A DNA stretch of 64,000 bases, taken from assembly GCA_963745075.1 (NCBI GenBank), contig CAVUWV010000001.1, positions 256,001-320,000 on the forward strand, in the 5' to 3' direction. Every line of letters begins with the position of its first letter. Positions within the stretch are counted from its first letter, which is position 1. Source of the stretch: Candidatus Hydrogenedentota bacterium (lineage in GTDB: Bacteria; Hydrogenedentota; Hydrogenedentia; Hydrogenedentales; SLHB01). The translations under genes and the position numbers were made by a program. The notes under the pieces are model-generated. The model had not been told where the DNA came from and ran no database searches. It saw only the letters and a list, made by a program, of their open reading frames with translations. Positions 59,070 through 63,450 of the stretch are shown one piece after another.

Positions 59070-59822
59070 TTGCTTGGCACGTTGGCACAAATCGCTATCG
59101 TTTCCGCGAGTCTTTGGCTTCTTATGTCGCACGGGTTGCCGGTTGAACCGGCCGCATTCGCTCCCACCCCCGAACTCGCGTATGCGTTGCAAACTCCCTT
59201 CGCCTCGGAGACGAAGGCAGAAAGCGCGGATCAGCTGAAACAACTCGGCATTGTGTTGAGGATGTTCGCGAACGAGAGTCGCGGTGAGGTGTTTCCGTCG
59301 CTCGATTCGCGCCCGGGAAACCTGATGATGCGGGCCTCGGAAATCTTTCCCGAGTATGTCGTGGACACGTCCGTTTTCGTGTCTCCTGCCTATCCGGACG
59401 CTGCCAGGCTCAAGGAACAAGCCGCGCAGAAACCGCTATCGCTAATCGACGACCGCAGCTATTGGTACCTTGGCTATGCGATACTCAATGAAGATCGGGG
59501 TCTTTCCTTCATTGAAGGCTATCGGAAAGCAGTCGAGGAAGAGGGCGTTCCCACGGATGATCTCAAGGCGTCCGGCGGCGCGATATACCGCCTTCGGGAA
59601 GGCGTCGAACGGATTCTCATTTCAGACATCAACAATCCGGACGCGGCGGCGCAAGTCCGCTCCCGGATCCCCGTTATGATCGAGCGTCCGGAACTCGAAG
59701 GCGGCGGTTCCAATGTGCTGTTTCTCGACGGACGCGTCGTGTTCATGAAGTATCCCGGACCGTTCCCCATGACGAAGAAGTTTATCGAGGCGCTGAAGTC
59801 ACTGGATGAATTGAAGCCGTGA
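59070..59822 (+). CDS. H-X9-DG-CTERM-like protein (start uncertain)
   Basis: LKQLGIVLRMFANE...FP, SYWYLGYA, IYRLREGVER and GGSNVLFLDG.V.FMKYP motifs. Confidence 0.7.
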   Translation: MLGTLAQIAIVSASLWLLMSHGLPVEPAAFAPTPELAYALQTPFASETKAESADQLKQLGIVLRMFANESRGEVFPSLDSRPGNLMMRASEIFPEYVVDTSVFVSPAYPDAARLKEQAAQKPLSLIDDRSYWYLGYAILNEDRGLSFIEGYRKAVEEEGVPTDDLKASGGAIYRLREGVERILISDINNPDAAAQVRSRIPVMIERPELEGGGSNVLFLDGRVVFMKYPGPFPMTKKFIEALKSLDELKP

Positions 59823-60709
59823 AATCTGCAAGTGCAGTGCTTTTCAACAGGAGAGCCACCGTGTTGACGACGATCCTGATCACGATGTTGTCCGTTCAAT
59901 CCGGCGCAGAACCGACCACCGAAGAACCTCCCGCACAGCCGATCCGGCTCGCGCTCATGCACGGCGTGCCGGTGAAGTGGGACGTGGACGCCAACTTCAA
60001 GGTTTTTCTTGGCTGTCTGGAGCAAGCCTCGTCCGATCGCGCCGACATCTTCATCACGCCGGAGTGCTGGCTGGACGGCTACGCTGCGCCGGACAAGACA
60101 TCCACCCCGGAGAAGCTGCGGACCATCGCCCAGGACATGGACGCCAGCCCCTTCATCCAGCGCGTCGCGAAAGAGGCCAAAGATCGTTCCATGATGATCT
60201 GCTTCGGATTCACCTCGCTGGAGGACGGCAAGATTTACAACACGTCCGGTCTTTGGGATGCCGAAGGCAACCGGATCGGCGTGTATCACAAGACCCATTT
60301 ACAGGCCCACGATCTGCAATTCAGTTTCGGACAGAGCATCCCGGTTTGGCCGTCGAAATACGGACCCCTCGGCATGATGATCTGCGCCGACCGCCGCTGG
60401 CCCGAAACGGTCCGCACCCTGCGCCTCGAAGGGGCGAAACTCATCCTAAACCCCACCTATGGCTTCCACGGCGACATGAACACGGCCATCATGCGGACCC
60501 GGTCTTTCGAGAACCAATGCTTCATCGCGTTCACCCACCCGGAAGAAAGCCTCGTAACGGGACCCAAAGGCCAGATTCTCGCCCAGTGGACGGGCTCCGA
60601 CCCCGGGGTCCTCGTCTGTGAAATCGACTTGTCCCTGGCCAAAGACGACAACCACCTCCACGACCGCCGCCCCGAACTCTACGGCATCATCACGCAACAA
60701 GGGAAGTGA
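59819..60709 (+). CDS. Carbon-nitrogen hydrolase (nitrilase superfamily), probably exported
   Basis: Glu-Lys-Cys triad in TPEC, YHKTHL and ICADR. Confidence 0.9.
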   Translation: MKSASAVLFNRRATVLTTILITMLSVQSGAEPTTEEPPAQPIRLALMHGVPVKWDVDANFKVFLGCLEQASSDRADIFITPECWLDGYAAPDKTSTPEKLRTIAQDMDASPFIQRVAKEAKDRSMMICFGFTSLEDGKIYNTSGLWDAEGNRIGVYHKTHLQAHDLQFSFGQSIPVWPSKYGPLGMMICADRRWPETVRTLRLEGAKLILNPTYGFHGDMNTAIMRTRSFENQCFIAFTHPEESLVTGPKGQILAQWTGSDPGVLVCEIDLSLAKDDNHLHDRRPELYGIITQQGK

Positions 60710-60752: not shown

Positions 60753-60773
60753 GGCACGGGCGTCTCGCCCGTG
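60753..60773 (+). repeat. REP-like hairpin
   Basis: GGCACGGGCG-TCT-CGCCCGTG. Confidence 0.55.
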
Positions 60774-60866
60774 TTCTTCATTTGAGAAACCCGCAATGTG
60801 CGATCGGAGAGTGACAGAACCCGAAGGAGTCGCAACAGAAAGCTCAGTTCCCGATCGTGAACTGTG

Positions 60867-60920
60867 GTCCATATCGTCCATACTGTCCATATCGTCCATA
60901 AGGTCCATAAGGTCCATAAG
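60867..60920. repeat. Six 9-bp tandem repeats GTCCATANN
   Basis: GTCCATA at 60867, 60876, 60885, 60894, 60903 and 60912. Confidence 0.9.
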
Positions 60921-61210
60921 AACCTTCCGACCCTGCACAAATCTGGCAGCCTCAACCGTGGGTAGGGAAAGACGAACGGGGCAGCGGACGCATCGCGGAG
61001 GGGCATGAGCAAGGACCACGCAGAACTACTGCGGCGATTCTATGAGTCCAACCGCGCCGAACGGGTAGCCGATCCCGCGCGTCAATGTCAGGCAGATCAC
61101 AGGTGGAGGCACCTGTGCAACACGGCAAACTGAACTTGTATGATTCCTGGATTATCGATCCGAATTTCTGACAATTCCAAAAGATGCTGATTGGAAAACC
61201 GGATACTCAA

Positions 61211-62038
61211 TGCTGACCCGAAACGTGTGGCACAGCCGCCCCCGGCTGTGGTCTTTCAAAAATCCCCGGGCATCCGCCTCGGATACTCGCTCAACTCCAG
61301 CAATGCATACAGCAACAGCCCAACCCCGTCCGTCGACTCGTAGTACGGTTTGACGACACCTATCCCGCACAACAGACGGAACGTTCCGTTCAAATCGCTG
61401 GCAATTCCGAATGCGTCAATTGTAAGACCCAAAACTTAGTGCTGACCCGAAACGTGTGGCACAGCCGCCCCCGGCTGTGGTCTTTCAAAAATCCCCCGGC
61501 ATCCGCTTCGGATACTCGCTCAACTCCAGCAATGCATACAGCAACAGCCCAACCCCGTCCGTCGATTCGTAGTACGGTTTGACGACACCTATCCCGCACA
61601 ACAGACGGAACGTTCCGTTCAAATCGCTGGCAATTCCGAATGCGTCAATTGTAAGACCCAAAACTTAGTGCTGACCCGAAACGTGTGGCACAGCCGCCCC
61701 CGGCTGTGGTCTTTCAAAAATCCCCGGGCATCCGCCTCGGATACTCGCTCAACTCCAGCAACGCATACAGCAACAGCCCAACCCCGTCCGTCGATTCGTA
61801 GTACGGTTTGACGACACCTATCCCGCACAACAGACGGAACGTTCCGTTCAAATCGCTGGCAATTCCGAATGCGTCAATTGTAAGACCCAAAACTTAGTGC
61901 TGACCCGAAACGTGTGGCACAGCCGCCCCCGGCTGTGGTCTTTCAAAAATCCCCGGGCATCCGCTTCGGGTACTCGCTCAACTCCAGCAATGCATACAGC
62001 AACAACCCAACCCCATCCGTCGACTCGTAATACGGCTT
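61211..62038. repeat. 229-bp tandem array (about 3.6 units) of gene 3'-end copies alternating with an invariant non-coding module
   Basis: Units start at 61211, 61440, 61669 and 61898; the last unit runs into the real gene end. Confidence 0.95.
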
Positions 62039-63450
62039 CGCCGGATGCCCCTTGAACCAGCCGTTCACGTACAACTTGTCGATGGCCTCATCCGCCAGAT
62101 CGATCGCCGTCTCCAAATCAGCCGGGTCCCCCGTCGCGTAATGCAAGTGCAGAAAAAACGAGATCGCCCGGCCGTAATTCTCCGCGTACGTGCCGCCCGT
62201 TTGTTCCGCTTCCGGCAGACATTCCAACAGTTCCTTCTTCCAGCGACGCCCGATCTGCGGCGGGAGGCTCTCGCGGATGTTCTCCGCCCAGTGCCGGGCG
62301 CTCTCCAATGCGTCCGGATCGCCGGTCAGTTCATACGCGTAGATCGACGTCTGCGCCGCGATCATCGGGAATTCATACGAAAACATCACCGTGCGCCAGA
62401 TGTCGATGTAGCCAACCGGCTTCCACAAGTCGTAATGATCGTCCATCTGCTGGTCCATCACCGGCGTCCCGTCGAGCGCCAGCATCGCCCGCCACTGATG
62501 CGCGTCCCCGTCCCAGCCGTATTTCAAGTAGGCCTTGATGTAGGCGAGAGCCACGTCTTGAAACCAGGGGTCGCCCGTCAACTCATACGCCCGCAACAAC
62601 GCCGCCGCATGGGGTCCCGTGATCGTCGTGAAGCAATGGTTCGCGTCGTACCGGTCGCCCGTGCTCGGTGCGTCGGGCGCCAGATTGGTTTCCGGATTGC
62701 GCGCGTTCCAGTGCCGGCCCGCCACGATCTTGCCCACGACAGATACTTCGGATCGCCTGTCTTGCCGTACATGAACGCGAAGGCCTGCAACATAGGATCC
62801 GCCCGCGAACGCAAAATCGCACCCCACGCTCTTGTCATCGTGGCGATTGAACAGGCCCGTCTCCTTGTCCACCACGTGCCATTCCCAGATCCCCTCGACC
62901 TCTTGGCGGAACAGGTCCGGCGTCACGCGCCACATCCGCTCCCATTCCGGCAGGAGCACCAGAATCTCGTGAGGACCCTTGCCGTCCTGGTCACCCCCGG
63001 GCGCGTCCGTGTACGCGTCGTAGAAGATATGCGAACCCCAGGCCAACATGCCGTTCTCTTTTCGCGAACGCTCGAAGAAGACGCGGACGTAGTCGTCACA
63101 GGCCTGCCGCGTACCGGTCGTCGCCCGGTGAGGTCGCTCAGCGCGTAAAGCGTCCGCAGCAAGGGCTGGTCTTCCCAAAGGTCGCTTCCCGCAGGATTTC
63201 GCCGATGCTGGCGCTCCTCACACCGGATATATCCGTCGAGGGGAAGTGGTTCCCGGGGCGATTCGCCCGTGCTCACGTCGATAATGCTCATGAAAAGCGG
63301 CGTGGAAAGGTCCCCATAATGATCGCGGCCGTATTCCAGCATATGGTCCGCCTGCGACTGGACGCAGGCTCGATACGTACCGGCCTTGTCCGCAGGGACC
63401 TGGCCCAAGACCGAAGCCCAGAGCAGTGCGGCGGCGACAGCGACGCGCAT
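61943..63450 (-). CDS. Secreted (alpha/alpha)-barrel protein resembling polysaccharide lyase family 2; frameshifts near 63115, 62790 and 62735
   Basis: GGAGGAG RBS and signal peptide; LLRTLYALSDLTG, GMLAWGSH, PHE, W..HVVD...RH and repeated YELTGDP motifs resemble PL2 lyases. Confidence 0.65.

Follow-up and report, generated by a model that had tools for sequence, protein, structure and literature searches.

A tandem array of REPIN remnants and silently diverged gene ends behind a pectate-lyase-like gene of a Candidatus Hydrogenedentota bacterium

The end of a pectate-lyase-like gene in a Candidatus Hydrogenedentota genome is followed by a tandem array in which a non-coding REPIN remnant alternates with copies of the gene's own last codons that differ almost only at silent sites. 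The array was detected at positions 61211–62035 of the window (the whole 64,000-nucleotide stretch of DNA that was analysed), with a period of 229 bp, 3.6 copies and 97% matches, and each unit consists of a 133-bp non-coding module and a 96-bp copy of the last 32 codons of the gene (31 codons and the TGA stop). The explanation that we favour, with a probability of roughly 55%, is a single replacement of the 3′ end of the gene, joined at a REP hairpin and followed by unequal recombination.

Anatomy of the array and identity of the module

The host gene, similar to pectate lyase family 2 (61943–63450, minus strand; partial match to PF06917, E 4e-22; start inferred), extends beyond a 411-aa ORF, and its orthologues are open frames of 507–576 aa. 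Behind the gene's own last 31 codons and TGA (61943–62038, minus strand) we found module 3 (61810–61942), tail copy 3 (61714–61809), module 2 (61581–61713, REP hairpin at 61683–61708), tail copy 2 (61485–61580), module 1 (61352–61484, REP hairpin at 61454–61479) and tail copy 1 (61256–61351); the tails lie on the minus strand, no strand is assigned to the modules, and all three modules are identical over 133 bp. The 229-bp period, the three identical modules and the copies of the gene tail, all part of the original prediction, were confirmed by repeat analysis and alignment. What that prediction had described as a degenerate module end at ~61165–61210 is a complete distal REPIN (61094–61255, no strand assigned), made up of a REP at 61098–61123 (minus), a 101-bp spacer and a REP at 61225–61250 (plus). 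A convergent carbon–nitrogen hydrolase gene (59819–60709, plus strand; PF00795, E 1.7e-35) bounds the intergenic region. The units of repeat plus flank are nearly identical and stand head to tail, as in a tandem REP/REPIN cluster. Each module holds a weak terminator-like match; a promoter scan of the array stayed at chance level, and an Rfam search of it gave a single match, no better than chance.

Two further repeats were seen in the window. A 9-bp GTCCATA-type tandem repeat at 60866–60920, with similar stretches many times in five relatives (G003–G005, G016 and G034), probably represents another repeat family. A 17-bp inverted pair at 60754–60770 and 63256–63272 resembles a second REP-like family, and similar sequence was found in the insert behind the argS gene described below.

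The module is a truncated REPIN. Its gene-side 31 bp form a REP, in which GTGG stands directly 5′ of an 8-bp perfect hairpin, in agreement with the REP definition of GT(A/G)G before a palindrome as worded in the accessible part of PMC3686654. The intact REP (61912–61942 in module 3) is followed by a spacer of ~83 bp and by the decayed 5′ half of a second REP (61810–61828), and the module stops where the loop of the second REP would be. It aligns end to end with the distal REPIN save for a 17-bp deletion in the module's spacer; the 45 bp next to the tail are identical and, beyond these, 56 of 88 aligned bases match (~64%, that is, 36% diverged). The distal REPIN folds as a long hairpin (z −2.4). 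With its second REP cut and a z of −1.0, the module does not qualify as an intact REPIN and is therefore classed as a remnant. Since the half-REP is decayed, and its score against one REP variant is equalled by 1–2% of control 102-mers, its assignment to the second REP draws mainly on its position. The module's interior was not found elsewhere in the source genome (G000), nor in viral contigs.

The REP itself is widespread. A fuzzy scan of the source genome gave 51 matches, with 16 identical copies of the array's REP 26-mer outside the array, and 13 of 16 REP doublets were inverted pairs 94–103 bp apart, i.e. REPINs; 217 and 334 matches were found in the relatives G001 and G002. A RAYT ORF on contig C30 (60262–61243, L029; NF047646, 93 bits against a cut-off of 80) has one REPIN of the array's REP on each side and is, judged by these flanking REPs, the cognate transposase. 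The original prediction had missed the REP/REPIN identity of the module and this RAYT elsewhere in the genome, although it had named REP-associated tyrosine transposases as something to look for; its statement that no recombinase is nearby holds locally only. Nine REP clusters in G001 and G002 were chained REPINs or separate doublets, without capture of flanking DNA. At C1:114290–114575 of the source genome we observed a REPIN with four extra 32-bp tandem units inside, each a half REP plus 17 bp.

Variation of the tails and a probable founding event

Nine sites distinguish the gene end and the three tail copies, five of them with a state seen in the gene only and four varying among the copies; eight are synonymous and one is a K/R replacement, at a residue that also varies among orthologues. 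Exactly these sites had been listed in the original prediction, together with the mosaic pattern that we recovered. All four combinations of K/R and GAG/GAA are present (gene GAG/K, copy 1 GAG/R, copy 2 GAA/K, copy 3 GAA/R), so that recombination or repeated mutation is needed, and the exchange with the gene that had been proposed holds up in that the mosaic calls for recombination. At the four sites that vary among the copies, copy 1 reads GAG, GCA, R and CCC, copy 2 GAA, GCA, K and CCG, and copy 3 GAA, GCG, R and CCC. The differences from the gene number 8, 7 and 6 in copies 3, 2 and 1, from near to far; likeness to the gene is lowest in the copy that lies next to it, and the closest pair among the copies is 1 and 3. 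Three silent variants of copies 2 and 3 occur neither in the gene nor in copy 1, which requires a third source. Four of the five fixed gene-versus-copy differences lie within the 12 codons nearest the junction, and the AAG/AAA site, 2 bp from it, may belong to the junction itself. Eight silent sites of nine have P = 0.0014 under random mutation. That null is too lenient, since silent changes are all that the expressed gene contributes, and a fairer one that restricts the gene lineage to silent changes gives P = 0.042. Variable columns among the copies number 4 of 96 in the tail and 0 of 133 in the module (P = 0.03). All of these tests were post hoc.

How far these sites can be trusted depends on the assembly. 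Against three orthologues the gene carries four single-base indels, at ~63128, 63106, 62793 and 62731, and four indels in 1.5 kb suggest either an error-prone long-read consensus or a decaying gene, a choice that six private amino-acid changes in 260 residues leave undecided. Frame changes were counted in 14 of 166 orthologous genes of the source genome (17 rows minus 3 rows of tandem paralogues). The five gene-versus-copy differences, read three times over, are robust, whereas the four among-copy SNPs are individually tentative, local base accuracy being doubtful given the four indels in the gene. The array could thus be real and its four among-copy SNPs mere consensus noise, from mixed strains or long-read error, with only the five gene-versus-copy differences genuine. 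The frame changes and indels speak for this, as do the position of the CCC/CCG site of copy 2 at a C/G homopolymer border and the weakness of the among-copy sites taken by themselves (three of four silent, P = 0.10). Such noise should also have struck the 3 × 133 bp of module, however, and an array of 9.4 copies of a 75-bp unit elsewhere in the assembly (C8:264473–265178) is nearly invariant, with two variant columns. Each unit of that array begins with a stretch that may be a tRNA-gene fragment.

A sequencing run, X1, bears on the same question. Among the runs searched it alone contains part of the stretch, and no RNA run does. One X1 contig matches 61802–61939 exactly, with 0 differences over 138 bp, and spans a tail–module junction (8 bp of tail and 130 bp of module). 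A second X1 contig, REP plus tail, has two differences from the gene, one of them the copy-type CTG, and four from copy 2; it seems to be a fifth haplotype mixing the same states, its other difference being copy-type by subtraction. Copy-type states in a gene-type tail count against consensus noise, and we regard that explanation as quite improbable. The loose ends of the X1 contigs match other REP flanks of the source genome, so that X1 comes from the same or a closely related organism, and it may even be the source sample; the depth of its pieces is ~3 and the gene body is uncovered. That the whole array arose from strain haplotypes assembled in tandem was rejected as unlikely, since X1 contains the tail–module junction.

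The divergence of the tails was compared with that of the REPIN sequence beside them. Between the module and the distal REPIN, 20 of 55 sites of well-aligned spacer differ; between the gene and copy 1, differences were counted at 5 of 21 silent sites, a divergence like that of the spacer (Fisher P 0.41), and at 1 of 72 replacement sites. A dead tail copy, drifting for as long as the spacers diverged, should have gained ~15 replacement changes; no more than 1 was seen. With silent divergence like that of the spacer and replacement sites barely changed, the present gene end and the founding tail resemble a pair of functional alleles, both accompanied by a REPIN of their own. The original prediction had taken the tails for once-expressed alleles or converted copies and not drifted duplicates, and the silent and replacement counts agree with this. 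Judging from these substitutions, the founding tail was likely an expressed allele, and copy 1 is likely the displaced resident allele. Alternatively, each unit could be a small expressed gene under purifying selection, with a TTG-started frame of 58 codons running from the module into the tail. Such a frame is open in all three units, but no homologue was found among proteins of 31–102 aa, the first half of the frame is REPIN spacer, an open stretch of 28 codons is common by chance, and the states shared with the gene would be left unexplained; we give this possibility hardly any credence.

Orthologues of the gene are present in four congeners (G002–G005). In G005 one REPIN follows right after the stop and is homologous to both the module and the distal REPIN: the module scores 68–70 against these two and 22–47 against 17 other REPIN interiors. 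A REPIN lies ~70 bp after the stop of the orthologue in G002, and none was found behind the orthologues of G003 and G004. Tail copies of the gene were seen in 0 of 17 other genomes with an orthologue (132 searched), mostly fragmented assemblies in which an array could collapse. Judged by these comparisons, a stop followed by a single REPIN is likely the ancestral state. No conspecific or close locus was found among 40 relatives compared by DNA, and eight metagenome loci were 46–73% identical, none of them conspecific or close; this counts against the explanation favoured here, in which the tails are putative former expressed alleles.

According to the explanation that we favour, the gene end of a diverged strain, together with its own REPIN, would have recombined homologously inside the resident gene, and its other end would have been joined non-homologously, the hairpin of the second REP being linked to the resident gene at a point 96 bp ahead of its stop. 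The product would be new gene, module, old tail and old REPIN, in this order. The break at the REP could have been made by the cognate RAYT or by fragility of the hairpin, either being a candidate, and uptake of DNA is possible, given a ComEC-type gene in the genome. The 141-bp direct repeat so created (tail, REP and 14 bp) would then allow unequal crossing-over to multiply the module–tail unit, and the modules would be identical because they are young and were multiplied in this way. Crossovers with the gene and with the alleles of other strains would finally bring silent variants into the tails and spare the modules, which, unlike the tails, have no diverged homologous partners. The five sites common to all three copies are explained by one founding event plus amplification. 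A later conversion is also needed, since module and distal REPIN agree in all 14 bp that follow the REP. The copies of the array are probably by-products without function.

The array could instead descend from an old duplication made in place by slippage at the second REP hairpin, kept alike by conversion with the gene, which was itself later replaced by another strain's allele through homologous recombination. A join within the REP hairpin in both species (see below), the decayed half-REP and the 17-bp spacer deletion fit such a history; conversion would be at its weakest nearest the junction, where four of the five fixed differences are found, and clusters of REPs with flanking DNA occur commonly and in varying copy number. 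The module is nevertheless as far from the distal REPIN (56 of 88) as from that of G005 (62 of 88 matches), and the copy would have to be as old as the species split and under continual conversion; without conversion, the ~15 replacement changes expected stand against the one at most that was seen. We consider this course of events unlikely, while giving it some weight.

Another way to build the array, put forward in the original prediction and taken here with the RAYT as the enzyme, is by separate 3′-end replacements at a fixed junction in the REP, which would make it an ordered archive of past alleles. The mostly silent differences, the fixed junction, the cognate RAYT and the same build in G002 are in keeping with it, and in vitro TnpA-REP cuts and joins single-stranded DNA close to REPs, as reported in the accessible part of PMC3333891. 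An ordered archive should show polarity, and none is seen in the counts of 8, 7 and 6 or in the closeness of copies 1 and 3; independent donors should have brought module differences like the 36% that separate module and distal REPIN, and the modules are identical. The source genome moreover holds only 14 REP doublets of the array's type and one such array. The CRISPR-like archive by repeated replacement is thus not supported, all copies sharing five sites and no Cas1 being found in the 90%-complete genome, and we think it improbable that the array grew in this way.

Similar joins and displaced gene ends at other genes

A scan of GTDB genomes for direct REP pairs 202–232 bp apart gave nine loci, two of which hold a real gene tail (L073 and L081); the tail matches of L074 and L078 were rejected as frames running through the repeat. 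L073 is the same stretch as contig C145 of G002 (L122, 1–460), from a Candidatus Hydrogenedentota congener and at a different gene. There, 60 bp after the gene stop, come a REP, a spacer and the 5′ half of a second REP; a 5-bp GCGCC microhomology joins this half REP to a copy of the gene's last 10 codons, after which the module begins again, and the contig ends inside this second module. The tail differs at 6 of 30 bases and the module at 2 of 151 (Fisher P 3e-4), and four of the five changed tail codons are silent, with one P/Q replacement. The join in G002 thus has 5 bp of microhomology, and the array junction in the source genome has no clear one. In L081 (1301–1735), the last 46 codons of a Y1 transposase (RAYT) gene are duplicated in tandem together with a REP; five silent and five replacement codons in this duplicate count against the mostly silent pattern. 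No third case was found among seven relatives, where one of six half-REP candidates was a true tail join. Direct REP pairs at 141–171, 172–202 and 273–303 bp were found in none of the seven genomes, and two pairs at 304–334 bp were both without a gene tail.

Because the join lies inside the second REP hairpin, next to a silently diverged tail, in two species, a stronger reading suggests itself, in which the RAYT would splice an incoming gene end and its REPIN into the resident gene, the second REP hairpin would be a dedicated break point for allele exchange, and arrays would be its fossil record. We regard this as doubtful.

Displaced gene ends also occur in the source genome without the array's REP. 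A 92-bp 3′ end of argS (L103, C31:229284–230529) is duplicated 1154 bp downstream, with seven silent changes and one replacement (Q/E) and no REP of the array type; the gap is a patchwork of multicopy non-coding repeats without an integrase, and the four congener loci checked have one tail only. A 184-bp tail of a comM-like Mg-chelatase gene (L114, C31:187183–191643), likewise without the array's REP, is repeated 4277 bp downstream with nine silent and two replacement changes, and an IS1595 transposase and a PIN-domain ORF lie between the tails. The displaced-tail scan of this genome gave 22 rows, of which eight were checked and four of these were whole paralogues, and the control on 226 ORFs of G003 and G005 gave 0 rows. 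From the argS and comM-like tails, 3′-end replacement appears to be an ordinary process in this genome. We also observed an older-looking displaced end on C14 (L115, 130684, plus strand), where an 89-bp gene tail is repeated 1577 bp downstream with six silent and six replacement codons, and, at C20:152469–154422, a Y1 transposase-like gene with two tandem 183-bp copies of a related 3′ part ~700 bp behind it; a short palindromic motif, the same in both cases, stands before each copy.

Relation to known systems

Displaced gene ends are already known, and so are tandem REP clusters that include flanking DNA. In the literature searched, in which subscription journals were thinly covered, no account was found of a silently diverged gene tail joined to a REPIN that is cut within its second REP; similar cases may be held in Fig. 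S7 of PMC3116915, going by its legend, or in the SMAG locus tables. As far as the accessible part of PMC3337134 goes, no mechanism had been proposed for the formation of tandem REPIN arrays, and in the accessible part of PMC3333891 the in vitro work offers only models for it. As the captured flank is coding, the origin of the first unit, and the exchange of the tails with alleles, can be read from its silent and replacement sites. A join within the second REP, found at two genes in two congeners, gives a precise candidate site for cutting by the RAYT under natural conditions. Without a part for the RAYT, the array would be of modest interest, an ordinary by-product left by recombination between strains at a fragile palindrome, and also a caution for SNP calling near gene ends. 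We rate the interest as moderate because the coding flank records the start of a REPIN array and the join recurs in a second species.

The array resembles a CRISPR array in that a constant repeat alternates with inserts of equal length. It differs in that a single host sequence supplies all the inserts, as near-identical copies, the repeat has 133 bp instead of 24–48 bp, and polarity and Cas1 were not found; with inserts 97–98% alike, no Cas1 in the 90%-complete genome and no Rfam match beyond chance, a CRISPR array was rejected. Recombinase searches of the source genome gave four matches to tyrosine recombinases, none on contig C1, one broken reverse-transcriptase fragment on C19 and no serine recombinase of the resolvase type. 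An integrative element with att-site duplication was rejected, since only non-coding modules lie between the tails, no tyrosine recombinase is on C1 and no resolvase-type serine recombinase was found.

Displaced gene ends with silent differences are described for icd and icdC flanking prophage e14 (PMC13626634, accessible part). There too a 3′ gene fragment with silent changes was left downstream, and the icd fragment is able to recombine back into the gene. Unlike at e14, we found no prophage or integrase at the array, and the insert is a 133-bp REPIN remnant that has been amplified. Displacement of C-terminal parts by homology-facilitated illegitimate recombination was proposed for Rhs orphan tips and Vibrio T6SS immunity arrays (in the available text of PMC5361080). 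A homologous anchor in the gene with a non-homologous join, an old 3′ part left behind and the GC-rich 5-bp microhomology at the G002 join are in common with that process. The tails of the present array, in contrast, encode the same peptide and therefore offer no toxin or immunity diversity to select, and its growth looks like the amplification of a single event.

Tandem REP/REPIN units with flanking DNA have been described in Pseudomonas fluorescens SBW25 (PMC3116915), in the SMAG arrays of Stenotrophomonas (PMC2613905), in a survey (PMC3733652) and in PMC8049555, and models of RAYT cleavage, strand transfer and amplification in PMC3333891 and PMC8266576, as judged from the available portions of these papers. 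The array shares with the SBW25 and SMAG clusters a REP of GTGG plus hairpin, inverted doublets, a cognate RAYT, head-to-tail repetition of repeat and flank, and a place between convergent genes. It is unlike those clusters, as the same portions describe them, in that its REPIN is cut inside the second REP and its flank is coding DNA with hardly any but silent differences from the gene. The array thus belongs to the tandem REP/REPIN clusters with flanking DNA, and it works like the displacement of gene ends at icd/icdC and in the Rhs and T6SS systems.
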